Part shown: one piece after another, positions 10,501 to 57,200 of the stretch
Numbering within the stretch: the first letter of the stretch is position 1
Layout of the letters: each line of letters begins with the position of its first letter
Assembly: GCF_963676685.1 (NCBI RefSeq)
Contig: NC_092349.1
Location: 87,482,001 to 87,546,000 of the forward strand
Direction: 5' to 3'
Origin: Mytilus edulis
Lineage: Eukaryota
DNA: 64,000 nt
Notes under the pieces: generated by a model
The model's database searches: none
The model's input: the letters and a program-made list of their open reading frames with translations, nothing else
What the model was told of the DNA's origin: nothing
Program-made: the position numbers and the translations under genes

Positions 10501-11269
10501 TACTATTTAGATCGTTTATTCAGGATGTGGGTTTGAAAGACAAATTACATTGTGATATTTGCCTTAGTTTCTACTGGTAAAGGTGAAATCATGATTTTGC
10601 TGGCAATAACAGAAATTTTAAAAACGAATAATTTCAATATGCGAAAAAAATACAGAGAGAAATTTTGGAAACGAAAATAAAATGTGTAACGTTTGATATA
10701 ATCGTCATCGCAAGCACTGCCAAAATGTACATGGAATCTCAAAACACGAACACACAATATCGCTTTTTCAAAATCTGTTCAGAAATATATCTGTGGTACT
10801 CCTTTGTTTTAATTTAATCTATTCCACTAAATCTGGTCTGTTTTTTTTCGAAACCTTATTGTTAATAAATATTACCAATAAAATATAAAGGGTGTTTATA
10901 TATACAAGTTTCTATGTACTTTGAATAACCGAAGATTAATTGGTCACATACTTACATATAATATATATTTTCTAAGTACTACTGTTAGTATGTATTTGTT
11001 TATGTGTGCTGAGTTCTACTATGTTTTTTAAAAGTTGTTAAGTTATGATTAATACCTTGTTAATGTAATGTATATAGAACTTTAATAAGCTGTGCGTATT
11101 GCTCAATCATTTTCATATCTTAATTGATAAAATATGTCTAAAATCAAAAACATCCATAACCCAAAAACTGTTCAGGAAAGGTATTGCCGATTAAACTACA
11201 GAACATACAGTGTTTGTTTACTTGTAACTCATTTTTATGTGTTCTGAATCTGAACATAAAATAAAATCA

Positions 11270-11600
11270 TTACCCCGAAATTTTACGCACGCCATCACGA
11301 GTCGGATGGTCGGTATGGAATATATGTTTCACAGATGACGACGGATATGTTCCATTTGTGTTAACTACAATCCCGTCCCCTTTCTCCCGAAAAAGACTTA
11401 TCACTAAGTTGATACTTACATGAGCAATACAACGGATGCCACCAGAATCAGCTTACCCTTCTGGAACACCTGAGATTACCCCCAATTTCTGGAGGCGTTC
11501 GTGTTGCATGCTCAGTATTAAGTTTTCTTGGTTGTGTTTTGTCCACTTTTGTATGTGTCTTTTGGTCTTTTTCTTTTTTAGCAATTGGCCTTCGCCTATG
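11270..11600 (+). mobile_element. Old Penelope-like element 3' fragment (also at ~35120-35430)
   Basis: Diverged match to 12710-13010. Present in both duplication copies. Confidence 0.7.
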
Positions 11601-12016
11601 AATTCTGTGTTGTTTATTTTTTGGTCATGCCTCTATTTAGTATATAGAAATACCATGTAATGATTGTATAATAACCAGATGTGATTAAATGTTGGACAAG
11701 AGATATCAACTAATTTGTTATTGTATCATTAAATCACAAGTAAACATACCTGAGATAAAGTAAACGCAAACTGCGTTTGTGATTGTCACATTTACACGAG
11801 TAAGGATTAAAACAGTTTTTTTTAAGTACTAAGCCTTTCATCATTTTATCTCGCTCAGAGGAATGTAAAGTGTAAAGGGGAGTTGTACAACAAAACTCGC
11901 TCAGAATGCGGAGGAAAACATTTAGGTTCAAGACTTTATTATCTGATGATGACATTATGCCATAAAACAATGTTATATACGGTATATTGTCTGGTGAACT
12001 TCTAGGTAGATTGTAT

Positions 12017-13072
12017 GAAGAATGGCCAACGAAGATACAAGTATTTTGTCTTAGGGAGGGATTAATCATACTTTGTAAAGGATTACTCTGATTCAAACAA
12101 AAAAATCTCTGAAACTGATATTATCAAGATGCTTGATTTCTTGATTGACAACATATTTGTTACGTTCGGACGACGTGTTTTTCAACAAACTGTCGGCATT
12201 CCAATTGGAACAAATTGTGCCCCTCTACTTGCCGACTTGTTTTTTTTATTATTATGAGGCTGATTTCAATCAGGAACTTCTTAGGAAGAAAGACAAGAAG
12301 TTAGCAATATCCTTTAACTCTACTTTCCGCTATATAGAGGATGTTCTTTCACTAAATAATGCAAACTTTGGTGACTATGTGGAATGCATCTATCACATCG
12401 AACTAGAGATAAAGGATACTACAGATACAGTTAAGTCGGCCTCATATCTTGACTTACATCTAGAAATTGACAATGAAGGTCGGCTGAAAACAACTTTACG
12501 ACAAAAGAGATGATTTCAGCTTTCCAATTGTGAACTTTCCATTTCTAAGTAGCAACATTCCAGTAGCAGCTGCATACGTGGTATATATCTCCCAATTGAT
12601 ACGATATTCCCGTGCTTGCATTTCCTATCATGATTTTCTTGATAGAGGGTTGCTGCTCACAAGGACACTATTAAACCAAGAGTTCCAAATGGTGAAGTTG
12701 AAATCATCCCTTCGTTAATTTTACGGACGCCGTCACGAGTTGGTTGACCGTTATTGAATAACCGTTTCACAAATGATATCGAACATGTTCCTTAAGTCGT
12801 AACTACAATCCCCTTACCTTTCATGAATGTGACCTACCGAATTAGACTATTTACCGGATTTGTTATTACATACATCTGCTTACCCTTCCGGAGCACCTGA
12901 AATCGCCCCTAGTTTTTGGTGGGGTTCGTGTTGTTTATTCTTTAGTTTTCTATGTTGCGTCATGTGTACTATTGTTTGTCTGTTTGTCTTTTTCATTTTT
13001 AGCTATGGCGTTGTCAGTTTATTTTAGATTTATGAGTTTGACTGTCCCTTTGGTATCTTTCGTCCCTCTTTT
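12017..13072 (+). mobile_element. 5'-truncated Penelope-like retroelement, decayed reverse transcriptase plus 3' UTR
   Basis: Frameshifted GIPIGTNCAPLLADLF, FRYIEDVLSL (YIDD mutated), SASYLDLHL, YDKRDDFSFPIVNFPFLSSNIP and YISQLIRYSRAC motifs. Absent at the paralogous site (~35846). Confidence 0.85.
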
Positions 13073-13436
13073 AAAAGATAAACAGCGCAAAAAACATCTA
13101 ACGGTAAATTTAAAGTCAGAATTTCAATAACTAAAAAAAATACGGAACAGTTTAGTACATTTCAGCCTGTAAATAAGGTTCATTTTTATAAGGTATCTCT
13201 CAATGCATTTATATATATTTGACAGTTTTAACATTTAGATGATTCTCTCTTCCATGCAACATACGGGTAGGTAAGTAGTCCATCATAGCGACAAACACAT
13301 ATAGGGACATGGAACAAGTCCATGAGCGTATTTGATAATGGAAAATTCAAAAATGCGCACCAACCACAGCACAGAAGAACGAGAATTTGTTTTGTTTGTG
13401 TTACTTATATCATTTGTGTTTTGTTTTTATAATTGG

Positions 13437-13640
13437 TATAAAAAAGAAGATGTGGTATGATTGCCAATGAGACAACTATCCACAAAAGACCGAAATGACA
13501 CAGACATTTACAACTATAGGTCACCATACGACCTTCAACAATGAGCAAAGCCCATACCGCATAGTCAGCTATAAAAGGCCCCAAAAAGACAATGTAAAAC
13601 AATTCAAACGAGAAAACTAACGGCCATATATATGTAAAAA
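13437..13640 (-). repeat. 5'-truncated copy of the twister-bearing repeat family (no ribozyme part)
   Basis: Reverse complement of 59645-59836. Absent from the paralogous site at ~36210. Confidence 0.85.
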
Positions 13641-13748
13641 AAGTATAGTTATTTTCAAATTTGGTCCAAGTTCAAACAAGTTCTGCAAGTATGACAACGA
13701 TTTCTTATGCGTTTTAAATATGTTTAATTGTAAACTGAATTTCCTTTA

Positions 13749-14018
13749 TTAACCAGATTTAAACAACAGAATTGCAACTTGTCCCAAGTAAAAATATATA
13801 AAATGTTTGGTCTCATGTGTAACATAACTGCCAAAATTCCGTCCAACGATACAGTGCCATGTTGGGTTATACTTCCTATCGAATTCCTTTTTAATGTATG
13901 CAGCAATGTCTTTTTCAATGTTGAATTTCTCTAGAGCTTGTGTAGAACAGTCAACAACATCTTGTTGCATATCCTCTGACATATCAGCATTCTTAACAAC
14001 AGCTTTTCGGTCACTCAT
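13749..14018 (-). CDS. DYNLL: Dynein light chain LC8, copy 2, 89 aa
   Basis: Complete LC8 ORF. Acceptor tttag|CTGCATA-ATG (exon starts 14025); exon 1 donor GCAG|GTAAG at 15311. Confidence 0.97.
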
Positions 14019-14579
14019 TATGCAGCTAAAACACGAAACAATTTATACATATTTGTATATTTCCTGTACAGTTTCAGTTAACTTAAGTTTACAAAAACCC
14101 ATTTATCATGACGATAACACTTGTTTCATATTCCACTTGTTACTTAAGAATTGATTTTGTTATCCATTTTAAAAGATTTTGTCATGTATTCCATGACATA
14201 TGGTGTCTGTAAACAAGGAGGCTATATAACCTAGATCAAAATGAAATACTTTAAGCTCTTTTTAAATTGTGCTTGCCATAAGCAATCTGAATGATGCTTA
14301 AGTTGAATGTTGGTCCTATGTGGTTTTTCATAATAACTATAGTTTCGAATGACGTGTACGCTTACGAAAATATTACTAGGAATTCGTTAAATTTGCAAAT
14401 GGAGCTGGAAATACTACATTTTAATACAAACTTATTACATATGAAAAATGTAAATCATGACGTATTTTGCTGGAAGTTCAAAGATGCTTTCATATATAAT
14501 ACTTAAATCACGATAAAATAACGACTAAATGTCTAAATGAATTGCATTCTGTAATACATGTATTTAAGAAAATAGTTTT

Positions 14580-14650
14580 TGAAGAGACATGTATTGTCGA
14601 AATGAGCATCTGGTGCAAGAAAATTGATACCGTAGATTTTATTTCATAAT
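14580..14650 (+). mobile_element. Truncated retrozyme end with a partial hammerhead
   Basis: TGAAGA-GACA TGTAT TGTC-GAAA-TGAGCA-TC-TGGTGC, the same subfamily as 23818-23861, lacking the 5' strand of stem I. Confidence 0.8.
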
Positions 14651-15310
14651 CGGGAGGTATCAACAGGATTTATTTTATGCAATGTGACGTTGCTGAGAGC
14701 AGTATTTCCAGTCCTGACATTTTATATAATATAGTATATGTTCTATATACTCAATACTTTCACTTGGTAAAATATAATTGAACAATAGTTAAGTCAGCAG
14801 GCAATTGAACATAATGTATTTCAGAATTTAAAGTCATTATGCACAATGATGCATGAATAATCTATTCAAAATTCTAAATCCGGCTTGTTGGGTACAGTTT
14901 TCTAAAGAAATATATTAGTCCAATTCCTTGCTCACTTTCTTGTGAATATACGAAAGACAGATTGTAGGTATATGTAAGCCTTTCTAGTCAAACGAAAACA
15001 TTTGAATACTTTTGTCTATTTCTTAACAAACAATCAATAAGATGGTAATTGACCCTAAAAGTTTCTGATGTAAAGGGACTAAATACAACCGGAATATAAA
15101 TAATAATAAAATGGAAATCAATGTAGATATGTCAATGTACGTTAATATCACATTTCAAATACTATAATAATATCCAGAATATATGGTAGATTGATTTAAC
15201 TTAATAATGACGATATGCATTAACTGGTTATCAATGAAATGAACAGGTTATATTGTCTTTAATTCACAATTCAATATTTGAATATTTTGAAAATTATCTA
15301 TTTTCCTTAC

Positions 15311-15477
15311 CTGCAAAAGTCTTTTGTCATACAATGTACATATATGTTTATAGACGCAGTTCCTATAAGTAGCACATTGATTTTTATTACATATTTCTTC
15401 ACGGTTTTGCTTTTGCTTATCTTAGTATACAACTGGTTGACTTAACATAAGTTGCTTGGATTAGTTTGTCATCCCAG
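15311..15477 (-). promoter_or_regulatory. Putative non-coding exon 1 and promoter of LC8 copy 2
   Basis: Donor at 15310-15309. Conserved motif CTTGGATTAGTTTGTCATCCCAG at 15455-15477. Confidence 0.7.
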
Positions 15478-16129
15478 AATACACCGGAATCGGATATATT
15501 AGAAATTTCAATTTAAATACACTTTGACCTGAATCTACATATTACATCTTTGAATGAATATTAGGAACATAAAGTTAAACAACTTAAAACTTTAAATGAC
15601 TTTTTTGGAGGCGTTTATCAAATAGCCTTATGCATTCGAGTCTCTATAACAACTGGCATAGACCCACCTAATATTCGACTTGATTGGCAGCATAAAACAA
15701 AACAAAAATAAAGAAGATTTACAAGATGTGAAGTATTGATTTTGTATTTGAGAACTTATACCTTAATAGGGAAATATTATAAAGAAGGTGTGTTACATAG
15801 TCAGACATGCATTTACAATACTTCATTAACTTTTTCTGTAAAACAAGACCTGATAGTATTCCTTACAAAACATCATTAAATGCTGAAACAGTTTGTTGTT
15901 AATTGGAAATTGGTTCAACTAAATTATCCAAATGGACGTCACATATCACACTTGATCCTACAACTAAACTTGGTAAAAAATATAGGAGACAAGACGAAAA
16001 CATCGGGAGTATTCGGCCATTACGCAAAAGGATTCCAATCCAAGTTCAAATGCTGAAAAAAAATCCCGTTTATACTTTTTTCATATCTCAATATTTGAAG
16101 CAGAAAATAATTATCAGCTTTCTTATTAA

Positions 16130-16351
16130 GAATTAATCAACAAACTGCACTTTTTACGCGTGGGAATTCTTAACAAAATGTATGGTTTCGTGTGAAATAT
16201 AACTTCCAAAATTATAACATGTTGTTGGATACATTTATGTATATATATTCAGCATTGACATTTTCAATAGCTTTCATACTAAAGTCTACACTATATTTTT
16301 AATGTCACCTGACATTACAGCATATCTTATAAAAACTTTTATTTCAGTCAT
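16130..16351 (-). pseudogene. Degenerate LC8 pseudogene (copy A)
   Basis: Translates with frameshifts to MTEIKVFIRYAVMSGDI / VDFSMKAIENVNAE / NFGSYISHETIHFV. It keeps an acceptor 8 nt before the ATG (ttcag|ATAGTATC-ATG), as in copies 1 and 3. Confidence 0.85.
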
Positions 16352-17284
16352 GATACTATCTGAACATAATTACACTAATTTATTAATTATTCTTTGTATA
16401 TGCAAGATAGTGCCACTAGTTGAGGAAGATCTGCACAACCTTCTGTAGCACCCGCGATCATCCCACATTTTTGATTGGGATTGTATTGTTTAATCTTTAG
16501 TTTGCCTGGTAGTTTGTATGAACTTGTATGTCTTTTCGCCGTCTTTCATTTTTGTTTTTGACGTTCAGTAGCTCCTTTGTTTGAATGTTCTCACTTCACC
16601 CCTTTACCATGATGTTGTCCTTTTTTTATTCACTTATTCTTCTTCATTGCCCATATGTAACTGCTTTTTTATTTGTTTTTTTTACGTCTGTAAGAATACA
16701 GAACGATAATTAAAAAGCTCTTATTGGTTATTGTTAAATGCATGATACCTGTACTTTAAATTGTTTTGTTTTGTGTGTTTCTACCCAAATCCGTGTCTGA
16801 TCAATGAAGACGTAACAGTTAAGATGAACAAAACTAAATACGTGAATTCTTGGGTCTGAAGTTCAAGTTTGGACTGCATAGTAAGACCGAAACCGTTATA
16901 TGGGTCGTAACTCGTCGTTAAATAATTTACTGTATTTATCAGCTAAATCATTGTACATTTTAAATCATTTTCACGGCTAGATAACGTCTATATAAACATA
17001 TAATGAAAATGTAAATACTTTCACCCATGTCGAAATTGTTAAGTGTGACTGCATTAAAGTAAGTGTTGTCATCAACAAAAATTATTCATTCATCTGTGAA
17101 AATACAAAATACAGTTAAAGTCATATGAAACAAGTTAAATTATACATTTATAATGTTATCGAACTTATTGAACCAGTGCATGCATCTATACTATTGTTTA
17201 GCCGATTTGTCTCCAAGCCGACGATCGTCTGTTCAAAGTATTGTATAATAATAAATAGTAAGTGTATGTAATGTACTTTATAAT

Positions 17285-18397: not shown

Positions 18398-20490
18398 TAC
18401 TTACTTACTTAATGATACTTAATGATGTTTTCCGGTACTGGATCCTCACGGTTCCTCTTCACCAGACTCATATGTTTGATTGTTATCTCTATTATTTCTA
18501 TTGTTGCTTTCGGTTATTGCAGCTCGATAATCAGAAAAATAGATTTCTTCGTATTCGAAGTACTTATCTAATCTATTTTTTAATGCGTTTATAGATGGCG
18601 CTTTTGTTCCTTTATTCGGTAACTTGTTCCATAATTTGGCAATTCTTATTGAAAAGCTGTTTTTCCTCAGACTTGTTTTGAATCGTTGGTGAATGATTTT
18701 TTCCATTTACTCTTGTGCTATGCCTATTTTCGGTGTTTGAAATAATTTGAGAAATGAACTCGTTTCTGGATCGTATTTACCGTTAAGTATCTTGTATGTC
18801 TCAATCATGTCTTCTTGGACCATTCTATATGACAATGTTGGCAGCTTAAGTTTTTTCAATCTTTCCGGGTAGCTTAATTTATTGAATCCAGGTATCTGGC
18901 GTGTTGCCCTTTTTTGTACATTTTCGATTTTGTAAATGGAAAGGTGCCCGTACTGAACTAGTATAGTCTAAGTGTGTTCTCACTAAGGTTAATGTCCTTC
19001 TGATTGCAGCAAAAATTGAAAGACTTCAAACAGCAGTCTGGGGTGTAGATTATCAGGGCCAGGTGATTTGTCCGTTTTTATTTTCTGGAGGTGTTTCAAA
19101 ACCAAATCAGTGCCAATATTTAATTCCTCTATTTTCTTATCTAGTGAAATATGCTTAGGTTCTGGAATATTGCCTTGTGGTTCATTAGTGAATATGCTTG
19201 TAAAATACTCTGATCATATTTCAGTCTTTTGTTTGTTATCATCTGTTTTTTTTTCGGATTTTACATCTTCTGTGTCTACATGTAGATCTCCTATACCTTC
19301 CCTGGTCTTGGATTTGGATTTTATATAGCTCCATATGGCTTTAGGATTTGTCTTAGCATTTTCAGATAATCCTTTTTCGAGTAATTTCTTTTGTTTGTTG
19401 ACTGATGTTTTGGCCTGGTTTCTGACTTTATTGTATTCAGCTCTTGTTTCTGGATCTTGTTTAGTTATATTTTTTTTGGATAGAATATTTTTCCTTCTAA
19501 TTAACTCTCTCGTTTGTTTGTCTATTGAGAATACATTTTTCTTTTTTCCTATTTGTGTCATAGTTTTGTTTTCTAATTCTTTTAAAATGGTTAAAAAATA
19601 ATTCCAATTAATATCAATGGAAATGTTAGCATTAAGCTTATTATGCCAGTCTATTTTATTCAGCTCTTGTACATGTTGTAGAAAATCTTTGTAATTTTCA
19701 TGATTATACAGTTGAGCTATTCTTGGTGCTCTTTTTATATTTACATAACAGTTAAAATCAAAGGATAGGACGCAGTGGTAACTTTTTCCAAGCGGGCTCA
19801 TATATTCTAAGTTGGAAATCCTCTCTTCTTCGTTTTTAATTAGTAAATCAAGTGTATGGAGTGTGTCAGCTCCTCTCAATCGTGTTGGTTTTGTTGTGTG
19901 TTGGTACAGAAAATTGTCTTGTAGTGCTTCCAGAAATTTATTTTCAATGCTGTTTGGTCTATCCCCCTTTGTGTTCCATGATTCCCAATTGATTTCAGGA
20001 TAATTAAAATCTCCCATAATGAGTATGTTGGAGTACCCCATATCTATTGCCTCTGACATTAGGTTTACTAGCTAATCATTGTACTCCTTGGAACTGTTGG
20101 ATGGGGTTCTATCAGACCTACAAGGAGTTTATCATTTTGATTAAGTTTTACCTTTATAAATATATTTTCTTGAAACTCTGTAGCTTCTAGGTTGGAGTCT
20201 ACATACATTAAAAGGCCTCGTCCTTCATCTGACTTTATGTTTTCTCGAACATTTTGTAATTTCCTACCTCTGGTAATGAGTATTCCGCTGTTGATAGTTT
20301 ATATCTGTTAGCTTTTGGTTTTACTTCTGTTATACCAATTATATTTGGTTTGTTGTCTCTTGTTCCGACGTTCAATTCTGACATTTTGTTGAATAGCTGA
20401 TCTGCATTAGTATAACAACAGTCCAATTTGGATAGAACTGTAAAGTTATTTACATTGCCGTTTAAAACCTTTCCCTTCTTTTGTACATTG
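18398..20490 (-). mobile_element. CR1-clade LINE remnant (APE endonuclease and ORF2 C-terminus; RT core deleted)
   Basis: YTNADQL, IIGITE, GDFNYPEINW, LGKSYH, KSPGPD, LVRTHLDY and LWNKLP...KNRLDKY motifs; (TAAG)n-like tail at 18398-18425. Confidence 0.9.
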
Positions 20491-20599
20491 ATAGTTGTCT
20501 CTTTTGTACGGAGTTTCAGTAAACTACTACGCATCATGTAAACAATATTTCAAGGTAACAAACTTAATGATGTCATAAGAGTTTTTTTTGTCTTTGGAT

Positions 20600-21311: not shown

Positions 21312-21882
21312 ATCTTTGTATTGTGGATGCTACATGTATCTTATCGGCATATACCCCATCCTTCTATTCATAAAACTAAGATGAGACTTGTTTTTGTTAT
21401 TGCTAAATAATGCAAAGCAACTAATGGTTTGCAAAAACAAAAATTAACTTGTAAAAGATTGATATTAATTGTATTGAACATGAACTGAAATCATCACTAC
21501 AACGTTGTATGATCGTCATCACGAATTAATCGATCGAATGACTGTAGATGAGTTATCAAAATATTTCATGTCCTTTTAATCATCGTTTGCAACTTTAAAA
21601 AAAATAAAATAAATAGGGGAGGATTACATATATTTAACTTACTGATGAAAAAGACAGGAAGATAATATTCACTTACATATAAACAAAACCTTGTCTAACT
21701 ATAAAAATAAAAAGGTGATAGTATTGACGCAGCTTGATATATCGATTTGAATATCTTAATTTGTCGCTGAAGTAATATTCATTGTTGATATAAACGGGAT
21801 TGTTACGTATCTTATAATAAGTATACAAATAGTTAACAAAATATATATTTCACGATCTTCATTCAGCTTGATATAAGATTAT

Positions 21883-22343
21883 CTAATTTAGTTTCCATCC
21901 TGAAAATATTGTACGTGTATGACCGTCGTTGCTTAAAAGACGACCTTGATGGTTAGATGTATTTTTGAAATAAACAGTTCCACCTTCTCTGACGTATTTC
22001 ATTATGAATCCAGTAGAACAGGCGTCATCACTGTAAGTTTCTGTGTCTGCATGTACTTTTCCACAAATCCGTCCGTCAACAACCAACTCTGTTCCAAATT
22101 CCCCATATCCTCCACCCTCCTTTGTGTTACTGTCTACACAAATTGTCCAGGTAAAGGCATACATTCCACTAGATATTGCTTGGACGATGCCCGTATTGGT
22201 GTTGTAGACACCAAAAGTGTTAGTTTCTGTCTGGTCAAAGATCAGCGTTTTCCCCTGTGACAATGAATTACTATAGCCATTCACAAAACCTTGAGACATA
22301 TTATGTGCCGAAAATCCTATAAACTCTCTCGTTTTTCTATACT
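21883..22343 (-). CDS. C1q-domain-containing protein, terminal exon (globular C1q domain); native signal-peptide exon not found
   Basis: Open frame YRKTREFIGFSAHNMSQ...LIFDQTETN...YNTNTGIVQAISSGMYAFTWT...TIFSGWKLN*; phase-1 acceptor ttttgttttgatctag| at 22344. Confidence 0.85.
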
Positions 22344-23790
22344 CTAGATCAAAACAAAATGGAAAATTTAATTTGTATATTTTTTTTTAGATTAAATTGT
22401 TTTATCTAGTAGGAAGGTAAACGGCTTAAGCTTTCTTTGAAGTTTGCAAGTTTTTATTCGATACTTAAACTTATAATCAGGTTTCAAGCGAATAACCTTT
22501 CTGTTAGTGACAGGTGCAGCGTTAAGCGATTTGTTAGACCTTTATTTTGGCCTGTATTTTTGTTGGTGGAGGAGGGGGTAACTCATTATGGTTTCTATTA
22601 TGTTAAGAAGACTGTTTGTAAATATGCCAATATTACTCAAAACTGAAAGCCAGTAGTCCACGATCGATTTAATCACTGGTAACAACTCATAATCATACAA
22701 CAAGTTGTCTGCCTTGACCAGATAAACAACAGTTAAGTAACCTATTCAATCGCACATCCTTATGTCGAAAAAAATTCAAACCAAACCGATTTGTCATTGT
22801 TTCGAAAAATAAAAGGTCTTTAAGTTAACAAATTTGTGTCACATTTGCTATCAATTCATATCAACCATGATTTTATAAAACTGAAAACAATTGATGATCA
22901 TCGGAAAAAATAACAAAAAAGTATTTAAATATAAAAGCTTACAAAATGAATGCAAATCGTAGAACAATTTATTCTAGGCTGTACTTATATTTATATTCAA
23001 TAAATGTCGGATGTGAAGCAGGAATTGCACAATTTCTTATAGAACCAGTGGAGTTAAAACCTACCTCTAAGCAATGTACTAGTACTCCGATCTAATTACG
23101 ATAAAAATATGTGATAACGCGACGAGTAAGCGAGTTACGGTAACTCTGAATCCATGTCAGGTCAACCTTCCATGAGGGAAAAGAAATCTTAATTAACAGA
23201 AACACTTAAATAAATCAACTGAGAGTTATTAATCGTGTTAGCACCAAATCACTGACTATTCAACTATTAATTTCCTCGGGCCTAGGATATGCTTATTATA
23301 ATAAAGCAGTAATTGTCCCTAGCCTGTGAACATATTTCAAAGGATTGCATAACTGCTGGACATAATGTTACCTAATTGTAAAAAAAAAAAATCGAAAATA
23401 AGTGATGACTTTATGTAGATTTACATTTTAAAATAATGGCCTTTTTCATATATTTGAACAATACATATACAAATCATGTAATACACTAATTTTACGAGTC
23501 CTCACATATTATAAAATATAAAAATTACATTTAATGAATTGTGTGATAATATGCATGAACCAACTGTCGCCTAACAAACACATACAGTCAATTGTTAAAG
23601 TATCAATACTCTTTTATTATATTTTATCAATATTTCACCTGTAACAATATTCTGATGATTTATCATACAATTAGGAATACATCGTACAGTTTATATCTAA
23701 ATATTTAAATATATGGAATAATGTCATTATTTCTTACCCGCAAAAGTCCTTCAATATGCACTGTATGTATATGCTGTAAGTATTGTTAAT

Positions 23791-24114
23791 GATAAAATCA
23801 ACGGTACCAATTGTGTTGCACCAGATGCGCATTTCGACAATACATGTCTCTTCAGTGATGCTCGTGGCCAAAATATTTGAAATCCAAAGCTTATATAAAA
23901 GATGAAGATCAATAATCCAAAAGGTCCAAAAAGTATAGTCAAATTCATGAAAGGAATCAGAGCTTTGCATGAGGGAGATACATTCCTTAATTTATAATAA
24001 GTTCTAATATTTTGTAACAGCAAATTTTAATAACACAAAAAATCCGTATTTTCATGCCAGTACCGAAGTACTGGCTACTGGGCTGGTGATACCCGCGGGG
24101 ACGAATAGTCCACC
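23791..24114 (-). mobile_element. Retrozyme-like non-autonomous retroelement (324 bp)
   Basis: Absent from the paralogous site (gttaattagttgcat, ~5266-5280). Carries an intact hammerhead and a cUUCGg hairpin on the same strand. Confidence 0.85.
23818..23861 (-). ncRNA. Type I hammerhead ribozyme (AUC cleavage triplet)
   Basis: GCAUCA-CUGAAGA-GACA(UGUAU)UGUC-GAAA-U(GCGC)A-UC^UGGUGC. Core complete; stem I 6 bp, stem II 4 bp. Confidence 0.9.
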
Positions 24115-26800
24115 GTTGCATATTGATTTAATAGCATAATTTTTCACGGTCTTGCATATGCTCATCGTGAGTTTTAACTGGTATACGTAACGAAAATATC
24201 TTGGATTAGTTTTTCATCCCAGCATTCATCTTAAACGGATATCTAGTTATCTGCAATTTTAAAACGCTTTGATGTGTGAATCTATTAAAAGTAGTATTTG
24301 TTAAAAAGTTATGAAATAAGGTAATAAAACTAAACATGTTGAAGGAAATTATGTTGAAGCATGTAATAAATGAGTAAGTGTTTCGATTATGTAAACTAAT
24401 AAAACAAAAAATCTGGTGTGAAAAAATTGAGGGAATTTGGAATTATGCTGTCAGTCCACTAAACCCGTCGAAAATTGAATATGTTCGCCATTTGGAACCA
24501 TAGTTTTTCACTTAATAACTTAGACGACAGAAAACTTAAACATTACCCCCTGAATCAACTTTGGAAATTTTAATAAACGTATGTGGCCACATTGCCAACA
24601 TTTAGTCTAAATGCTTTAGTTAAGAGTTTTGATTATGCATGTCGCAGAGCCTCTGACGGTACAACTGAAAGAAGTAAGTTCACGAAGGGTTAAAATTGAC
24701 CCTAAGATTTTGATGATCAGGCCAAAATACTACATATTTCGAATAGAAATAGCTATGATATTACTATTAATACAACACAAGTTCATTTTGGGACATCACA
24801 TTACAAATGACGAAGTATTGACTACTTAAGTGTGCATTATTTGTGTTGTAACGTCAGTTTTGGTAATGTTTTTTAATAATTCTAAACAGTTTTTAGGGTA
24901 ATTACATTAGCCGCCATCCATGATCCAGAACGTGTTTATGTCTAGGGATTCAATATCATCATTGGCAACTTTTGGTTACAGAATATTAAGGATCCTAAGT
25001 TGCGGCCAAGGGTTTCCTCAAGATTTAAGGTCCGCAAAATGCACAAAATCATCGTATTTTTACAATATATCCAAAACATACTGATTTTAAAGACAATAAT
25101 GTACTCCTATGAAGAGATTGGTTTTAACAAAGAAGTAAGGCTTTTGAAATAGATCCATTTAAGAACCAAATTATGGTCTTTTTGAAATTTTATGTTAAAG
25201 TTGAAATTAAAGGCCACATTTGGCCTTAGGTGAACCTTGTCCTTTGCAGCATGTTATAATTCAACTAAGGTGATACCAGAATAAAATGATACATAAATTA
25301 TATGTGATAATATGAAATTGTAAATGATGTGAGGTTGCATTAATTATTTCTTAAATAACCGCTAGATAAAAAGTGTTTAATTCTTTTAATTCTCTAACCC
25401 AATATTGGTAATTTTTATTTTCATTTTTTTTTCTCGTTAGCTACCGTATAATTCACTGTTGACATTTTATAACTAAGGAGCCGCCATGTTGACTGGCTGA
25501 AATCAGTAAATGTGTGAATAAAGCAATATAATAGGAAAAAACCCAACACCTAACTCAAAACTTCATTTTATTGCAATATTATCCGAATTCGGAGGGTTAA
25601 CGCAACGTAAAAACCTTCAGCTTTGGCGTTTTCATTCGTATGACGTCATGTTTTGAAATGACGTTTATGCGCAAAAAAACATTGATGGAATTTCGCGGAA
25701 TTTTGTAACTAAGGAACCACCATGTTGACTTGCTGAAGGGCCTTTTTCAATTGCAATTTTTAACACAGCGAAATCGGCATTGCGTTTGCACATAGGTTAC
25801 GAAACATGTAGATTTACGAGGGAGGTATATTTAAACAGCCATTAGTTTGTACATTTCGGAATCTGCGCTAAGTATAGATATATCGAGAATTTTATCACGG
25901 TTTTGTTTACAAAACGAAAGAAGCACGTCATATTAGAATCCTTCATATAAAAAATCTATTTTTCTGTCAAAGGGATGATGAAAACAAAGATATTAGACAC
26001 TTAAAATATTTAATATGCAAAATACTAGGCTTTAAAGATGCCTTTATTACCTGTATTTATGTATGAAAAAGCTGAATTATGTCCCTTGGGAGCATTAATT
26101 TCCTACAAAAGTCCTCTCAGACAGTACAAAATGACAAATTATATATGCCTGATATAATAAAAGATAGAGACTACAAAATGAAGCACTATTGAAATATTTG
26201 CTGCATGAATTGCCAACAATGTGAGCAATCCTTTACATAGGAGTGTACAAATTCTATCTAAATTTATCCTCAGGTGGGACTCTTTTTTTCTTAAATTAGA
26301 CAATTTTAACACTGAAAATGCTTTTAGTATGATCAAATATTGTCTTACTCCATAAACATTACAAGCTTAACCACACAATTTCCTATTTTAAATGTTATTA
26401 TGCCTAGAGAAATACTCAAGTGATGCATTTCGGGAATTTAACACAGCAAAAAAGGCAAATATATGGTTAAAAATATTTGTCGCGACTTGAATTCTTGGAT
26501 TTTCAATTGAATTAATCATTGCAAAAGGAGAAAACAAATACAAAAGAAGAATAGCTTGGTGCAGTTTATACAATATAGTTAATATTGAAATCCTAGAATA
26601 AAGTTTTATATCAGTATCCATCAATTTGACTTATAATGATGACTCAGCACTTTTCTCAACACAGTACTGTTCTCAGTTAAAAAAATTCTATTCTTTGTGA
26701 TGAAAATCAAAATAGTATAATATGACTGAAGTCTGATTAATTTTGATTTCCCTTGCTATCTTGAGTATAGCTGGGAACAGTATATATATGTTCCTGAGTA

Positions 26801-27240
26801 TAGGGAAAACGGTACTATTTATTCTGCCATAGGCGACAATACTAACATTTTCTAATTTTACCACTTTTTATAATAAAAACCTGGATAAAACAGTACTGTG
26901 TTGTGTTAGTACTTTATTACTCTATTTTAAAAATTGAAGCCAAATAGTATCATGACAAATTTCCAACGGAGCTTATTTATGTTTTCCATGCCCACCGTCA
27001 TTTTGCAGCAAATTTATAAAATTTTGAAAGCCTTTACGAATAATTCTCTAGAAAATATTTCAATAGGTTTTAGAATTTATATCATAAATATAAACACTGC
27101 AGTTATTCATAGATAAATAAAAAAATATATTGTACCCTAACATCAAATCACGGCGCTCCTGAGTTGACTTCCTTCACCTGTCTTGGGTACACAAAAGGCC
27201 AACTTAATGCTGGGAAAATGTAATAGTACCGTTTTCCCTG
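26801..27240. mobile_element. MITE with 18-bp TIRs and TA target duplication (Tc1/mariner-like)
   Basis: AGGGAAAACGGTACTATT (26802-26819) / AATAGTACCGTTTTCCCT (27222-27239), flanked by TA on both sides. Confidence 0.7.
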
Positions 27241-29019
27241 TAACATTGACACGTATACCAGATTTTTATATTCATAGATACAAACATTGATTACATTATC
27301 TATAGTGTAATACACCATTAATAATCCATTTTATTACACTTGTGATCAAGTATATTGTCCATACTTCAATTTTGTCATTGAAAGTATCAGGTATTCTAAA
27401 AGAAAAGAAAACATTGTGTGAATCGAGCCCCATTATGAACCGGCATGTGTAAACAGAAGGTAAACAACTAGGATAATATATCAAGGGGCAATCAAATACA
27501 ATAAATCGAGAGAGAGAAGAAAAAACACATCACAATGAAAAATTAAACAAATGAACCGAAAAACAACAGTCCACAGAACATTAAAAGGAAAAGACTAAAA
27601 TGAGTGAATCAAACCCTATTATAAACCGTGATGTGTGAACAGAGGGTCTCGTACTACTATTGACTACACACATTTATTTGTTATGCGTTATCGTCCTAAT
27701 TAAGTGAAATCAGTGTGCCATATGATCTGTATATTGTTAAACTAATTGAAAATAAGTCATTAAAATACATGATAATCACTATGTGAATACTAAAAAAATC
27801 GACATAATGTTGTTTTAACCTCATAGTACTCACAAACTATTGTGCTACTTAACATAAAAAATATTTAAAAAATGACTCGTTTAAAACAAGTCACTTACTT
27901 TGGATCTATGCTGTCAGTCCGCGAAACCCGTCGAAAACCGAATGTGTTCGCCCTTGCGAACCAGAGTTTTCACTAAATATCTCAGACGACAAAACATTTT
28001 AACATTTTCCTCTGAATCAACTTTAGCAAACGTATATGGCCACATTGCCATAATTTAGTCTACATGCTTTTGTAATATCTTTCACTACTTATTGTTTAAT
28101 ACATACTTGCTACTGGTAAAGCAGTATGTAGATTAAAAGATGGCAAAATTAAATTTCAAACAGTTTAAGCCATATTTAATGTAGGTAAAGACCAAAGAAG
28201 GTGATGAGGCAAACTAGGTTTAAATACCACATTGTATCACTTACAAGGATCTGAACACAGACTCTTTCTTAAGAAAAAACGCTTCTGCTTTTAGTAATAG
28301 TTCTAAATTTAACGGTGTGCGGCTGTAGATGTCTGTAGCTGTTTATCACTGACGACTGTTCATCTCATTACCTTAACCATGCTTTTATTCAACAACCAAT
28401 GACTGTTAATTGGTTGTTTTACTTCTCTTCGAAAGCAAGCTTGAGTTTAAAAAAAATTGGTACCAAACATTCTGTATTAAAATTTTTGTTTTTCTATAAT
28501 AAGTTTTTCTATAATATCTGTTATCGATGCTCTTCAACCTTGTCTTTGATCTCGCTTTCCAACTCCTTGATTCGATTACATTATTCATAATTTATTTATC
28601 AATTTAACTTTAATTTTTAGACTAATTTTTTTATATTACATTTTATTAAATTGACTGTACAACTGGTTGGCCTCAAAAGTATCTTAAATTTTATTTAATC
28701 TTTTTTATTAGTCGATCGGAACAAAAAAATACATAACCAGCTCTTTTAAACTATTTCGAACCAAGAATGCATAATCAATTATTTTAAACTATGCAATGAA
28801 ATAGTTGCTTCAAATTGTATGTTAAATGTCTGTTAATGTTTGTGAAATCACAAGTATTCATATAGTTTAAATAGAATATCACAACTTTTATGATATCGAA
28901 TATATTTCTTATCTTATTATTAAACTGTTCTACCACCGATGCTTTTTACTCCGAATAAAAATATTAAACAGGTATTATAATAATAAAAAAAAACTCATGT
29001 AAGTTAAGTCTTGAATGTT

Positions 29020-29119
29020 NNNNNNNNNNNNNNNNNNNNNNNNNNNNNNNNNNNNNNNNNNNNNNNNNNNNNNNNNNNNNNNNNNNNNNNNNNNNNNNNN
29101 NNNNNNNNNNNNNNNNNNN
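29020..29119. other. Assembly gap (100 N)
   Basis: Run of N. It hides the LINE 5' end and probably the paralogue of ~9920-10600. Confidence 0.99.
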
Positions 29120-29785
29120 ACTCATGGTCATCCAAGTAGAAATCATGTTAGACCATCACAGGCTTCATATCAGAACCAAAATAGACAAGCAAATGGGCAA
29201 ATCCCACCACCGCCAACATACCATCAAGCCAATCTACAAAGGTCATCTCATTATCATCAAAATAGAAACAACAACCAAACAATGATGACTCAACATACCA
29301 ATGCAAACGCTAAAGCATCAAGTAATACATTGGAAAAACAACAAGCAAATACTACACATGTATTATATGCTGACAATTCAACAAAAGTCGTAGCTCAAGT
29401 CCCAACAAGTATATGCTCTGATGGACAAAACAAAATGGTGCATAGAAATAACGTAAAAACTCACCACATACCAGTTAGACAACCAACAACAGAAAGCAAG
29501 CAGTCAGAAGTAACAATAACTGAGAACTTTCAAGTATCAGCTTCATTAGTACAATCAGAAGTAGCACCTTTGCCTGGTGAAACGATCAAGGAATCAAACC
29601 AAATAGTTCATCAGGAGGAAAATTCAATCAAACAAATGACGGGAAACAATCAAGATGCAATTGATGAAGGAAGACAGAACCAATCGAACTCTTTTTTAGA
29701 AATTCCGAGCCTCAAGAACAAACCACCAGACATCCTCAGAATAGGCATGGCAACAGAAACACTCAACAGTCACGGCAGAGATTAA
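29120..29785 (+). CDS. LINE ORF1, C-terminal low-complexity (Q/N/T-rich) part
   Basis: Open from the gap to TAA at 29783-29785; overlaps ORF2 in the -1 frame. Confidence 0.7.
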   Translation, partial: THGHPSRNHVRPSQASYQNQNRQANGQIPPPPTYHQANLQRSSHYHQNRNNNQTMMTQHTNANAKASSNTLEKQQANTTHVLYADNSTKVVAQVPTSICSDGQNKMVHRNNVKTHHIPVRQPTTESKQSEVTITENFQVSASLVQSEVAPLPGETIKESNQIVHQEENSIKQMTGNNQDAIDEGRQNQSNSFLEIPSLKNKPPDILRIGMATETLNSHGRD

Positions 29786-32700
29786 ATATAGTTACCAGCA
29801 ACATAGAGGGTGTAAAGGGAAATGCAGCCTATCTTTCAGATCTAAGTAAAGAACAAGATATTATCTGTTTACAAGAACACTGGTTATGGTCTTTTGAACT
29901 TCAAAAACTGGACGAAAAATTGGCAGACTATAAGATATTTGGCCGGAGTCACGATTGTAATGAACCAATAACTAACTACCAAATTCCAAGGGGAAGAGCA
30001 GGCGTAGCTATTGCCTGGCCGCAAAAATTTGACAAAGTGATTTCAAAATTGGATGACGGGAATGAAAGAATTATAGCAATAGAGATCATGTCAGTACCTA
30101 AACCAACATGCCTCATAAATGCATACATGCCAACAAATGCAGCACAATCTCTGGATGAATATAAGGAATGCCTAGACATCATATTTAACATCAAGAGCAA
30201 ATATGATCAGTCACACAACATCATCTTATGTGGAGATCTAAATGGAACATTGATATCAACAAGAAACAACAAACATGATATTAGTCTCAAACAATTTACT
30301 TCCGATAATGGATTAAAACCAACTCGAGACATCCAATCAAAACCTACATATTTTCACACAGATGGAAAGGCTACTTCTCAAATTGACTATATTCTGTCTA
30401 ACAATGACATCCTACTATCAACCAGTATTTACTGTCAAGATCCAGTAAACACATCAACCCACGTACCAGTAAAAGAAGAACAGTAAATCTAAAGCAAACT
30501 CAGTAGCATATAAATTAATATGGGAAGAAATGGATAAAGACATATACATAAATGAGATTGATAAACATCTTCAATACCTTCGAATTCCATCCGATGAAAC
30601 TACAGTTGATGATAAGATAAAATGTGTCATGGGAATTCTACACAAAGCTACCAAACTAGCAGTACCATCAAGAATTATCAAACTAAATGGACCCAAAAGA
30701 AAAGCTTCCCCTGATGTTAAAAGACTAATAGGAATTAGCAAAAACAAACATAGGCTCTGGAACGATGCAGGAAGACCACGAGACGACCATCCTCTATTTA
30801 AAGACAAAAAGGAAGCCAAAAGAAATCTCAGAAAACAACAAAGAAAAGAAACTGCACTAGAAAAAGAACAATTCATTCAAAAACTTGAAGAAAATCAAAA
30901 TGACCAAATATTCCACCAACTTATCCGAAGAAATAGATCAGAAACTTCAAAATCTGACACTAATTTTCTAAAGATGGGAGAGGAAGAAGCTATATCCAAA
31001 AAAGAACAATGTGAATTACTAGCAAAATACTTTAAAGATTTGGCCCAACCAAAAGACAACGTTAATTTCAACAACGAAAAACTTCTGAACTGTAAGAAAA
31101 GATGTAAAATCATAAAAGAAATCACAAAGGCTTCAACCGACACAGAAGTTATCATAACTAAGGAAGATGTCCGGAAAGCTATAAACCAACTCAATACTAA
31201 GAAAGCAGCAGACGAATATGATTTAGCCTCAGAACATTTGCAACACTCAGGGGAAAGCTTGCATGAAATACTACAAGAAACATTTAACCAAATTCTATTA
31301 GAGGAAAAAGTACCATTAACGTTTAAAACCGGAACAGTATCTCCGATTCTGAAGAAAGGAAAGGCATTCTATGAGGTAGAAAATTACCGTGGTATAACAG
31401 TCACATCAGTTATTGGAAAAGTATTTGAATATATCATTTTGGATAAATCTAACTTAATGAAATCGGGTCAATCTCCTTTACAGTTTGGTTTTACACAAGG
31501 AATATCTCCAAACATGGCAGCCCTTATACTTTCGGAGGTATGCTCAGAGATCACAGGAACACAAACCATCTTCGTCACAACACTCGACAGTCAAAAAGCA
31601 TTTGATGTTGTAAGTCACGTGATACTGATGGACAGGCTATATCACTACGGACTAAATCTGAATTTGTGGAACATTATCGAGGAGCTATATAGCGGCGTAA
31701 CATCAACAGTAAAATGGAAAGGAGAAACAAGTACAAGCTATGAAATACACCAGGGCGTGCGACAAGGAGGTGTCCTATCTACTCACATATATAAGCCTAC
31801 ATAAACGAACTGCTTCTTGATCTGCAAAAACGAAATCTAGGGTCTCATATAGGCAACAATTATGTTGGATGTCCTACTTGCGCAGATGATATCGTACTTT
31901 TATCCCTCAATAGAGAAGAAATGCAAGAAATGCTGAATATTGTCGATAACTACTCAAAAGACCATCGATTTAACATCCATCCTCAAAAGGGTAATGTTAT
32001 AATAAAGTCTGGAAATAAACGTAAAGATCCTGAAGATAGCGATGCTTTTAAAATGGGGAACAATGATTTAAATTGTACGGATCGTACAACCCATCTAGGG
32101 CTAACAAGATCAACAAAAGATGAAACCCGAATAAATGTAGATGATCGCATCAGTTTAGCCAGAAGAACATTATACTCGCTCATAAAGACTGGTGTACATG
32201 GCTCAAATGGTTTAAATCCTAAAACTTCATATGGGATCTATCAAGCATACGTCCTACCAAGGCTACTGTACGGGCTTGAAACTCTACATGTGAATTCTAA
32301 AGAAATGTCGCTTCTTTCAAGCTTCCACCTCGATACCTTGAGAAAACTTCAGTCTCTTCCGAAAAGGACAGCATGTGCATCAGTATACCTACTTCTGGGA
32401 GCTCTACCGCTTATTGCTGAAATTCACAAAAGACAACTTAGCCTCTTATTTTGATGTTCTCAATAGCGACAATGAAACTATTAGATCACTAGCTTTGCGT
32501 CAATATATGTCCGGAAGATGAACAAGCTTCTTCACCAAAACAGCAGAAATTTTAGAGATGTACAACCTACCTTTCTTTCTGGAATTATGCGAAAAGAAGT
32601 ATTCAAAAATAGAATGGAAAAAACGGACAAAATCAGCAATAAACGGTCATTGGACTAACAAACTACGCCTAGAATGTGAAGAAAAATCAACTCTACAAAA

Positions 32701-33175
32701 TTTAACAATTTCGAACTTAACAATAGGTGTCACACATCCTGTTTGGGCTACAGTTTCGTCATCAGTCTCGGACATTAGAAAAGCAATTACAAAAAGCCGC
32801 ATGTTAACGCGAACCTATCTATTACAAGCTCATAGACACAGATTTAAACAGGCCGAAGTAGACCCGATTTGTCCAAACTGTAGAACTGAAAACGAAGACC
32901 TATGTCATGTTTTAACAACTTGTCCGTTGTATATGAACATCAGGATAGCATTATATACTCCAATTAAGAACTTTATAGTGAGTATTATATCTGAATCAAC
33001 ATGGGGAACTCACTTCAGTAACCGTGAGGCAATATGTACACTGATAGTAGACTGTCAAAGCTTCGCAAATCTGAACATTATACCGAACAACCCAGAAATA
33101 CTTGGAAAGATTGAAAATCTGTCCAGAATATACTGCTATGAAATTCACAAAAAGAGACTATCAGCCGAGATATAA
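29698..33175 (+). pseudogene. LINE ORF2 (endonuclease/reverse transcriptase), broken by stops and frameshifts near 30485, 31795 and 32451-32520
   Basis: ORF-track pieces 29920-30486, 30530-31804, 31921-32454 and 32558-33175 are consecutive domains of one protein. Confidence 0.9.
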
Positions 33176-34307
33176 CACTTCCCTGGGTATCACAGCTCCC
33201 CATAAAGACACTAATGACAATATTTACCACCATGTGTCTATATCTGATATATATCATAAATAGTAAAATAGTTGCCGTAATTAAAATACTTTAGTGTGAT
33301 GTTTATACATAAATATTTAGAACATTAACATCTGCTTGCTTAACTATAATATACACCATATATACAAGCCTGAACGTGTGTACCGTGCAAGACTTTAAAA
33401 TTTGAGTACAATGTAGAACTAACTCTTATAACGCAAAAATATATCATTGCTTATTAACAAAGACATCAACATTAGATAGAAAATAACCATCTGTAGCATC
33501 CTCTAAATGCATAGTATTTTGGCTTACACTTCTTGGCTCCCATATGAATGAAGACCTTTTAATTCATTAACTCTATCCAGTGAATTCAACAGCCAAAATA
33601 GTTAATTGATCTTATTTAACTAGACATTACTTTTATCGCCGTATCTACATCCTGGATAACGGAGGAATCTACCTGAACAGAACAGAACCTGGATAATGAA
33701 TGGGTAATCCGTGTATATAATATGTACATTTCTGTAAATAAATTTTGTGCATGTGCAACGTTCTGGTGGAGGATTTCATTGTGGATATGTTTACATTTTT
33801 AAAAACTAATCCGTTAAGGAAACACAGCTAGCTGTGTGTGCTCCAACACGGAGGGATTTACATAAAGAAGAAGAAGAAGAAGTTGGCGGAAAAAGAAATT
33901 TTGGGAGCTCTACCGCTTATTGCTGAAATTCACAAAAAGACAACTTAGCCTCTTATTTGGTGTTCTCAATAGCGACAATGAAACTATTAGATCACTAGCT
34001 ATGCGTCAATATATGTCCGGAAGATCAACAAGCTATAGAAGAAGAAGACGTTGGCGGAAAAAGAAGGCCCCTGAAATCGAATACTTTCAAAACGCGAAAA
34101 AAAAAAACAACCGAGAGAACTTTTGGAAAAGAAAAAAATGAAGTGTGTAACGTTTGATATAATCGTCATCACAAGCACTGCTAAGATATACATGGAATCT
34201 CATAACACTAACACACACAGTATCGCTATTTTAAAATCTGTTTAGAAATTTATCTGTGATACTCTTCGGTTTGTTTGAAAAATACATTTTTACATTGTTT
34301 GTTTGTT

Positions 34308-34638
34308 TATAAAAATGAGATGTGGTATAATTGCCAATGAGAAAATTCTTCACAAGACACCAAATAACACCGTACGGCCTTCAACAATGAGCAAAGCAAA
34401 TACCGCATAGTCAGCTATAGAAGGCCCCGAAATGACAAATGTAAAACAATTCAAACGTGAAAACTATTTGGCCCAATCTATGTACAAAATAATGAACGAA
34501 TAACAAATATGTAACACAGTAACAATTGACAACCACTGAATTACAGGCTCCTGACTTGGGACAGGCACGTACATACAGAATGTGGCGAGGTTAAACATGT
34601 TGGTGGACGCCCAATCATCCCTCTAACCTGGGACAGTG
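34308..34638 (-). mobile_element. 5'-truncated copy of the twister-bearing repeat
   Basis: Reverse complement of 59486-59836; twister-like domain at 34532-34638; absent at the paralogous site (~10810). Confidence 0.85.
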
Positions 34639-36315
34639 CTGTTTTTTTTTCTTCTTTCTCATAAACTATTTAATCTATTCTTCTAAATCTGATCTGTTTA
34701 GTTCTAAACCTAATTGTTAATAAATATTACCAATAACATATAAATGGTGCTGATATATACAGGTTTCAATGTAGTTTGAATATCTGATGATTACGTGCTT
34801 ACATACTTTTATATAAAATACATTTTATAAATAATACTGTTAATATGTATTTGCTTATGTGTGCTGAGTTCTACTGTTTGAAATAAAGTTGTTAAGCTAT
34901 TATTAATACCTTGTTTATGTAATGTGGAGAGAGCTTTTATAAGCTGTGCCTATTGCTCAATCCTTTCCATATCTTAATAAATAAAATATGTCTACCATCA
35001 AAAGCATCTTTAAACCAAAAAATGTTCAGGAAAGGTATTGTTGATTAAACTACAGAAAATACAGTGTGTGTATACTTGTAACGCGTTTTAATGTGTTCTG
35101 ACTCAAACATCAAGTTAAAATCATTACTTCGAATTTTCACGAGTAGGATGACCGGTATGGAATATATGTTTCACAGATGACGACGGATATGTTCCATTTG
35201 TGCTAACTACAATCCCGTCCACCTTTCAGCAAATAAGACTTATCACTAAGTTGATACTTACAGGAGTAATACAACGGGTGCCACCAGAATCTGCTTACCC
35301 TTCCGGAGCACATGAAATTAACCCAAGTTTCTGGAGGCGTTCGAGTTGCATGCTAAGTATTAAGTTTTCTATGTTGTGTTTTGTGTACTTTTGTTTGTCT
35401 TTTGGCCTTTTTTTTAGCCATTGGTGTTCGCCTATAATCTCTGTGTTGTTTAGTTTTTCGTTATGTATTTATTAAGTATATAGAAATATCATGTAATGAT
35501 TGTATGTTAACCAGATGTGTTTAAATGTTAGAAAAGATATATCAATCAATTTGCATTTGTATCATTAAGTAATGAGTAAACCCACCTTAGATAAAGGCAA
35601 ACGTTTACTATGTTCGTGATTGGCACATTTACATGAGTAAGGATTAAAACATGTTTTCTAGTATTAAGCTTTCCATCCTTTTATCTCGCTCATAGGAATG
35701 AAAAGTGTAAAAAGGAGTTGTACAACAAAACTCGGTTAGAATTTGGAGAAAAACATTATGGTTCAAGACTTTATTATATGATGTTAACACTATGCCGTAA
35801 AACAATGTAATACATATCGTCTGATGAACTTCAAAGTAGATTGTATACATTAAAAATAAACAGTGCAAAAAACATCTAAGGGTAAATTTTAAATCAGAAT
35901 TTCAATAATGAATAGAAAATTACCGAACAGTTTAGTACAATTCAACCTGTAAATAAGGTTCATGTTTATTATGTATCTCCGTATTTGACAGTTTAAACAT
36001 TTAGATAATTCTCTCTTCCTTGCAACATACGGGTAAGTAAGTCATCCGTCCTAGCGACAAACACATATAAGGACATGGAACCAGTCCATGAGCGTCCTTG
36101 ATGATAGAAAATTCAAACATGCGCACCAAACGCAGCGCAGAAGAACGAGGATTTGTTTTGTTTGTGTTATTTGTGTTATTTATGTTATTTGTGTATTGTT
36201 TTTATATTAGTATAGTAAACTTCAAATTTGGTCTAAGTTCAAACAAGTTCTGCAAGTATGACAACGATTCCTTATGTTTTTCAAATGTGTTTAATTGTTA
36301 ACTTAATTTCCTTTA

Positions 36316-36585
36316 CTATCCAGATTTGAACAATAAAATTGCAACTTGTCCCAAGTAAAAATATATAAAATGTTTGGTTTCATGTGTAACATAACTGCCA
36401 TAATTCCGTCCAACGATACAGTGCCATGTTGGGTTATACTTTTTATCAAATTCCTTTTTGATGTATGCGGCAATATCTTTTTCGATGTTGAATTTCTCTA
36501 GAGCTTGTGTAGAACAGTCAACAGCATCTTGTTGCATATCTTCTGACATATCAGCACTTTTAACAACGGCTTTTTGATCACTCAT
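36316..36585 (-). CDS. DYNLL: Dynein light chain LC8, copy 3, 89 aa (duplicate of copy 2)
   Basis: Complete LC8 ORF; acceptor tttag|CTGACACC-ATG (exon starts 36593); donor TCAG|GTAAG at 37058. Confidence 0.97.
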
Positions 36586-37057
36586 GGTGTCAGCTAAAAT
36601 AAATTAAAAAAAACACTAAAGAAATATCTGTTGTACAATTGCAATTTGCCTCAGATAGAACAGAACATATAGTGTTATGATAACATTCGTTTCATATTGC
36701 CAATGCACAAGATGGTAATTGGACCTTAACGTTACAGATATCAAATATTAATAAAATTGCAAGCAATTATAAGATGCCAATGTACGTAAATATAACATTT
36801 TCAATGACTTCAACAATATCCAGACTGTGTTAACTGTATAGTGACGATATGCATGAACTGGTTATTTATCTTACCGATACATACTTATAGTAATAGATAT
36901 TATAAATTCAATGAATGTTTGCTATATCTTATTACGAAATTGACTCCTGTTTCAGAAAATATTTCATCTGATGATATCTGCCTGGTTGATAAAATGAACA
37001 GTATACATTGTATTTAATTTATAATTCAATATTTGAAAAAATGTCAATATCGCTTAC

Positions 37058-57195: not shown

Positions 57196-57200
57196 TTTAA

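Follow-up and report, generated by a model that had tools for sequence, protein, structure and literature searches.

A hammerhead ribozyme in a truncated retrozyme copy, probably a passenger in a rearranged LC8/C1q pseudogene of Mytilus edulis

What does a hammerhead ribozyme do when it stands just upstream of a splice donor, in the sense orientation, at the head of a chimeric gene? This question is raised by a 64,000-nucleotide stretch of the Mytilus edulis genome (contig NC_092349.1, positions 87,482,001 to 87,546,000; the whole stretch is called ‘the window’ below), in which such a motif occurs on the minus strand within an insertion between a first exon and an upstream region derived from an LC8-type gene. 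A sequence-only reading of the window had proposed that the RNA could remove its own cap and so silence an LC8-C1q chimera, or that retrozyme RNA could be released from a host promoter. We consider it likely, instead, that the hammerhead is a passenger in a 5′-truncated copy of a high-copy retrozyme, which lies in a rearranged and likely silent LC8/C1q pseudogene. Were the locus transcribed, slow cleavage would leave a capped 5′ piece and an uncapped piece with a 5′-OH, and there is no sign that either is put to selective use. The features on which the argument turns are collected in Table 1.

Table 1. Features of the hammerhead-bearing insertion and of its host locus (window coordinates).
Feature	Position	Strand	Basis or remark
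5′-truncated retrozyme monomer, 323 bp	23792..24114	minus	positions 27-349 of the 350-bp tandem unit, 96.6% identity
Type I hammerhead ribozyme	23818-23861	minus	helices and core; 40-nt stretch with 3,010 exact genome copies
Predicted cleavage site after C17	23823..23824	minus	hammerhead geometry
Self-complementary 8-nt stretch	23825..23832	minus	candidate intermolecular stem III of a double hammerhead; duplex -10.5 kcal/mol
Putative distal helix I	23810..23874 (23874-23869 with 23810-23815)	minus	complementarity
Orphan LC8-type first exon, 3′ part (inferred)	23738..23790	minus	alignment with four paralogous copies; donor GT 23737-23736
LC8-derived 5′ part of intron 1	23146..23737	minus	23146-23790 matches 4355-4998 (LC8A) at 91.7%
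LC8-derived upstream region	24115..25259	minus	87.4% to 5274-6443; separated from the exon by the insertion
C1q-gene-derived segment	21450..23152	minus	source about 46 kb away: 3′ part of intron, last exon, 3′ flank
C1q-domain exon, open frame	21883..22343	minus	PF00386, E 1.8e-09

The hammerhead observation itself is confirmed. Stem I pairs 23861-23856 with 23823-23818 over six base pairs, one of them U-G; the core stretches CUGAAGA and GAAA occupy 23855-23849 and 23835-23832; stem II (23848-23845 with 23839-23836) has four base pairs and a 5-nt loop; and stem III is formed by two pairs, A15.1-U16.1 and one U-A, beneath a GCGC cap. The cleavage triplet is AUC, with C17 at 23824. The motif therefore has the CUGANGA, GAAA and NUH core elements, the three helices and the open helix I that define type I. 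The predicted cut falls 86 nt above the splice donor (GT from 23737) and 32 nt above the 3′ end of the element, and the predicted 3′ cleavage product carries those 86 nt of the inferred exon. The sequence-only reading had described a complete hammerhead in sense orientation, cut between 23824 and 23823 at this distance from the donor, and the anatomy bears it out on each point. Its word ‘intact’ applies, as far as base complementarity can tell, to the hammerhead core: the putative distal helix I appears to be mismatched in the window copy (U-C at 23871/23813), at a position paired in 24 of 26 family copies picked by position, and no compensatory changes in this helix were seen among those 26. 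The core pairs are retained in 25–26 of 26 family copies, a figure partly forced by the search pattern.

A chance origin of the motif is ruled out, because its 40-nt stretch occurs in 3,010 exact copies across the 1.37-Gb genome, where a reversed control has none. A descriptor scan for hammerheads returned two sites in the window, compared with 0.005 on average in 200 shuffled versions, with thresholds chosen post hoc for a hit that was already known. No hammerhead model of Rfam matched the window at the gathering score; the published mussel motif is likewise without most of the canonical loop contacts (PMC7229834). Like the canonical metazoan type I hammerheads (Cervera and de la Pena 2014, PMC4209133), the window motif has helices I, II and III of 6, 4 and 2 bp, a palindromic 4-nt loop and the capacity, in principle, to form a double hammerhead. 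It differs in its 2-bp helix III from the minimal helix III-less form and from the single-pair amphibian form, the latter of which is said in that source to need dimers.

The element that carries the hammerhead (24114-23792, in the direction of transcription) is an insertion, absent from four aligned paralogous copies of exon 1, and no target-site duplication flanks it. Elsewhere in the genome, members of its family form head-to-tail arrays with 350-bp spacing; host DNA flanks the arrays on either side, and the longest comprise at least nine matches. The 350-bp unit is non-coding, has a GC content below 50% and contains no long terminal repeat (LTR), PBS or PPT. A tandem unit of between 150 and 450 bp, one type I hammerhead in each unit and many dispersed copies are the marks of a non-LTR retrozyme, and the family has all three. 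Likened by such features, rather than by sequence identity to clones, it fits the published mussel non-LTR retrozymes, for which about 5,000 motifs that fall into two families, repeat lengths of 350–390 bp and abundant circular RNA have been described (Cervera and de la Pena 2020, PMC7229834). The two have in common one type I hammerhead per unit, a unit length within the range just given, two related hammerhead families, thousands of copies, presence of the family in RNA, a low GC content, and the lack of an ORF, LTR or poly(A).

Several further observations concern the retrozymes of the window and their relatives. Most RNA reads, and most genomic copies picked by position, carry a subfamily variant 3′ of stem I (23815, 23799) that is absent in the window copy. 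A 64-bp fragment from the 3′ part of the family lies antisense in an intron of the second LC8 gene (14580-14643, plus strand); its loop III is altered, and it terminates at the fixed 3′ end of the family that is described below. A second hammerhead family is represented at 61302-61421, 244-357 and 2302-2367 (all minus strand) and by 15,698 exact 23-mers in the genome. The core is complete in its copy at 61379, which sits inside a different multi-copy repeat; the resulting composite recurs at about 30 places or more.

Could a host promoter free a retrozyme monomer or circular RNA from the window copy, as the sequence-only reading had it? The sense orientation behind a promoter-like region speaks for such a release. 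However, two cuts are required per monomer (PMC7229834), and 26 nt of the unit are missing from the 5′ end of the window copy, the 3′ part of which contains its single hammerhead. An active retrozyme locus has at least two tandem hammerheads; this copy has one, within 323 bp, and is in that respect, as a truncated monomer, unlike the published mussel retrozymes (PMC7229834). Because there is only one hammerhead, excision of a monomer or circle from this copy is impossible: a unit-length circle is excluded by anatomy, the release proposed earlier fails on the same single, 5′-truncated unit, and we give the idea as a whole next to no chance. RNA reads with head-to-tail joints of the family do occur, and these fit circles or read-through of tandem arrays alike. 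The window copy resembles the solo retrozyme monomers of vertebrates, which are dispersed and have been read as non-transposing offspring, with a Penelope origin proposed (bioRxiv 10.64898/2026.07.22.740005). In the same source, exonic solo copies in vertebrates are rare (0.24–0.32%) and mostly found in 3′ UTRs; the window copy stands at the 5′ exon of a broken gene copy.

The host locus is the product of duplication and rearrangement. Three intact LC8 coding exons are present in the window (2976-3245, 13749-14018 and 36316-36585; PF01221), and the name ‘exon 1’ is given on the strength of a conserved donor upstream of such coding exons, no splice joint having been seen. What remains of LC8 in the orphan copy is the upstream region, the inferred exon 1 and 590 bp of intron; the chimera then switches, at 23146-23152, to sequence derived from a C1q gene. 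The retrozyme separates the exon from an upstream block that is conserved in the paralogues, and its distance to the donor is 53 nt. The signal-peptide-like exon of the source C1q gene ends 137 bp above the breakpoint and was left out of the duplicated segment; the PF00386 match starts at model position 10; and with its first ATG at 22299, a spliced product would have 138 aa and no signal peptide. An assembly artefact was considered for the chimeric junction and rejected, since contigs of two other runs bridge the join without differences, at a depth of 3–5 (a further contig, crossing it by fewer than 31 bases, was not counted). The LC8-C1q join in the earlier description has thus been upheld by both sequence comparison and bridging contigs.

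Other traces of duplication surround this locus. A two-gene LC8 unit has been duplicated in tandem as a segment (2971-16900 versus 23146-39012), and a sixth exon-1-like copy is situated outside the window, about 16 kb before its start. In the first LC8 gene (4723-5283, minus strand), the inferred exon 1 region is itself tandemly duplicated (about 290 bp, 90%), which gives two donors. All other exon-1 copies have an ATG 20 nt above the donor (approximately 4946-4966, 5233-5253, 15312-15332 and 37059-37079, minus strand), and the orphan copy has lost it (23757-23755). This ATG was considered as a coding start and rejected: one paralogue has it in the LC8 frame, whereas two have it out of frame.

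Whether the chimera is transcribed was examined with reads on 21700-24400 from three RNA-seq runs of one study and one small-RNA run (13–25% of each read used; tissue not stated, libraries apparently unstranded, and animals that may lack the locus or the insertion). Read depth is concentrated on the repeat and comes from other copies: at 23791, all 42 of 42 RNA reads carry a base other than that of the window locus (0/42 support it), as do 786 of 798 at 23813. In the three RNA-seq runs, there is no read depth on 22246-23701 or 21700-22063 and no splice joint at the LC8-C1q locus; reads that fall on 22064-22245 have loose ends, which suggests an origin from paralogues. About one read falls at 24157-24247, and four RNA reads over 23755 have a base that is absent here and in five paralogous loci checked. 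The scarcity of reads is not decisive, because efficient self-cleavage would also leave few of them. One DNA run yielded a contig that joins 23790 directly to 24115, at a depth of 57.6 versus 106.3 for unique flank. This junction is absent from all five paralogous loci, and the contig has LC8A-like bases at 24162-24163; it is probably an empty-site allele of the insertion and may instead be an allele of LC8A.

These data bear on an explanation that involves no catalysis, namely, that an LC8-promoter-driven chimera was knocked out by the 323-bp insert itself, which would part upstream elements from the exon and add six upstream ATGs. The position of the insert, 53 nt above the donor and between the exon and the conserved block, is as this explanation would have it; the element does contain six ATGs; and the C1q frame is still open. 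Yet three runs gave no chimeric reads despite the apparent existence of an empty allele, and the product would be without a signal peptide and without the start of the C1q domain. We regard an insertional knock-out as unlikely.

The same locus was read earlier as a self-silencing gene: the LC8 promoter would fire upstream of the cut, and the hammerhead would cut the capped 5′ end off the transcript, so that the chimera is silenced, possibly in a manner that depends on RNA concentration through dimers. The sense orientation, the complete core and the distance of 86 nt to the donor agree with this model. The insert has left the conserved block on its 5′ side, so that transcripts driven from this block would probably include the hammerhead, and the absence of reads is compatible as well. 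Folding predictions (nearest-neighbour energies, with tertiary contacts ignored) are less favourable. In the isolated 44-nt motif, stem I is predicted to pair at about 0.87, with stem III unpaired; in six longer contexts, by contrast, stem I pairing is at most 0.07 in all, and the active fold costs 5–10 kcal/mol. Further points against cap removal are the mismatch in the putative distal helix, the slow co-transcriptional cleavage of a cloned mussel repeat (about 0.1 per min; PMC7229834) and the lack of a partner hammerhead in cis in the window copy. Family reads do not pile up with their ends at the predicted cut site; the libraries are of fragmented cDNA and do not serve as a test of cleavage.

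The dimer component of the model calls for separate treatment. Two copies are predicted to associate as a double hammerhead at -27.3 kcal/mol, versus -7.8 kcal/mol per monomer, and a double hammerhead with a short palindromic helix III has been described (PMC4209133). The tendency to dimerise that had been proposed from the short stem III and its palindromic loop is thus supported by prediction; dependence on dimers is not established, most invertebrate hammerheads being said to cleave as monomers (PMC7761336). In Xenopus, moreover, eight of nine tested dimers did not cleave (bioRxiv 10.64898/2026.07.22.740005). On this balance, we find cap removal distinctly unlikely, and silencing of the chimera by self-cleavage is unsupported.

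Two more uses of cleavage deserve consideration. In the first, solitary sense hammerheads in host RNAs would be nearly inactive alone and would be activated in trans by abundant retrozyme RNA, through a double hammerhead formed on the 8-nt palindrome. We judge this very unlikely. If it were true, the level of retrozyme RNA would set the cleavage of many host RNAs, a selfish circle would thereby regulate them, and at the LC8-C1q chimera the polymorphic insertion would offer a natural on/off test; the present data give no support for such regulation. In the second, cleavage would aid cap-independent translation of a 138-aa cytosolic C1q fragment, since five of the six upstream ATGs and the ATG of stem III would be cut away. 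All six ATGs of the element are indeed 5′ of the cut, and the next ATG opens the C1q frame; self-cleavage in viral 5′ UTRs has also been found to promote translation, as it does weakly in plants (PMC13725137). In the same source, however, constructs with the ribozyme alone mostly gave an effect below 1%, and output fell with a human hammerhead. No spliced RNA was seen here, and any of thousands of copies may by chance precede an open frame. This second use is barely credible.

If the hammerhead is a passenger, the remaining question is how its carrier arrived, and on this the ends of the family are informative. Among 18 family arrays picked by position on one contig, the end falls at unit 348-350 in 17; the remaining array is in two pieces, the second of which ends at 350. 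A mid-body query picked 14 other loci, of which 13 share this end; two of these 13 represent one duplicated insertion. At the 5′ end, by contrast, insertions vary, starting anywhere between 1 and 328, and the length exceeds a single unit in 29 of 47. The fixed 3′ end lies 33 nt past the cut site. RNA reads that run past 23792 likewise continue into mixed flanks (48, 244 and 128 reads, with agreement under 0.5). Copies of the second family stop at the equivalent point, about 39–46 nt past their cut, as read by eye from copies without a next unit behind (arrays with a next unit were left out). In both families, the end is directly followed by a hairpin, the block that is best conserved (unit 4-79, 83% between the two). 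The host base after the fixed end is A in 31 of 47 insertions. Matches of at least 6 nt that resemble target-site duplications were counted in 11 of 47 insertions against 2.5 expected (maximum 6 in 200 shuffles), the count being confined to arrays that end at 348-350 and have both flanks available; short target-site duplications are thus present in a minority of family insertions.

A fixed 3′ end, variable 5′ truncation and partial tandems make up the pattern of Penelope mobilisation, and a Penelope origin of animal retrozymes has already been proposed (PMC7229834; bioRxiv 10.64898/2026.07.22.740005). Following that proposal, we suggest that tandem copies elsewhere in the genome are transcribed, cut by their own hammerheads and circularised, as has been described in mussel. 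Nicked AT-rich DNA would then serve as primer for a Penelope-type reverse transcriptase, which would begin at the fixed point 33 nt past the cut, immediately 5′ of the conserved hairpin, and would copy a circle or uncut multimer until a random stop, reached in the case of 23792-24114 after 323 nt. The template would have to be a circle or an uncut multimer because a linear monomer that starts at the cut site gives only 33 nt of cDNA. No statement of the fixed 3′ end was found in the parts consulted of the retrozyme literature, PMC7229834 included.

A close parallel is the Penelope-like element PAc of Anolis (Frangieh et al. 2024, PMC11167929), in which a hammerhead is likewise followed by an internal, fixed start of reverse transcription. 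In PAc, RNA 3′ of this start is needed, a layout that the retrozyme family parallels, and AT-rich targets, 5′ truncation and tandem copies are common to both. Unlike PAc, the retrozyme family is without an ORF for a reverse transcriptase or endonuclease, and neither a second start site nor a tail of 30–40 nt was seen in it. A search for a mobilising partner covered the Naiad-like copies of the genome (15,722 candidates) rather than the hammerhead-bearing clades. Naiad-like copies and retrozyme ends have only a 10-nt motif near the 3′ end in common (post hoc shuffle p 0.008–0.064), and none of 14 long Naiad loci reaches its own 5′ end. In the window, Naiad-like Penelope fragments with a fixed 3′ end are found at 11264-11585, 12066-13076, 35137-35412 and 38330-38782.

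The window has other repeats as well. Broken non-LTR retrotransposons with endonuclease and reverse-transcriptase frames occupy 29668-33175 (plus strand; it begins at an assembly gap, 29020-29119) and 18446-20549 (minus strand). An imperfect palindrome of 1.08 kb (87.6%) spans 56685-57760, two related palindromic repeats are located at 39011-39303 and 49496-49736, and a tandem array with units of about 195 bp extends over 44888-45777.

As one among thousands of copies, in a broken gene copy and with no RNA support, the locus itself carries little weight. The family to which its insertion belongs carries more. A fixed 3′ end that stands before a hairpin common to both hammerhead families, although the distance to the cut differs between them (33 nt versus about 39–46 nt), is likely to mark the start of reverse transcription. 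The conserved hairpin is thereby a candidate for the element that the enzyme binds, and the Penelope route proposed for the retrozymes becomes testable.
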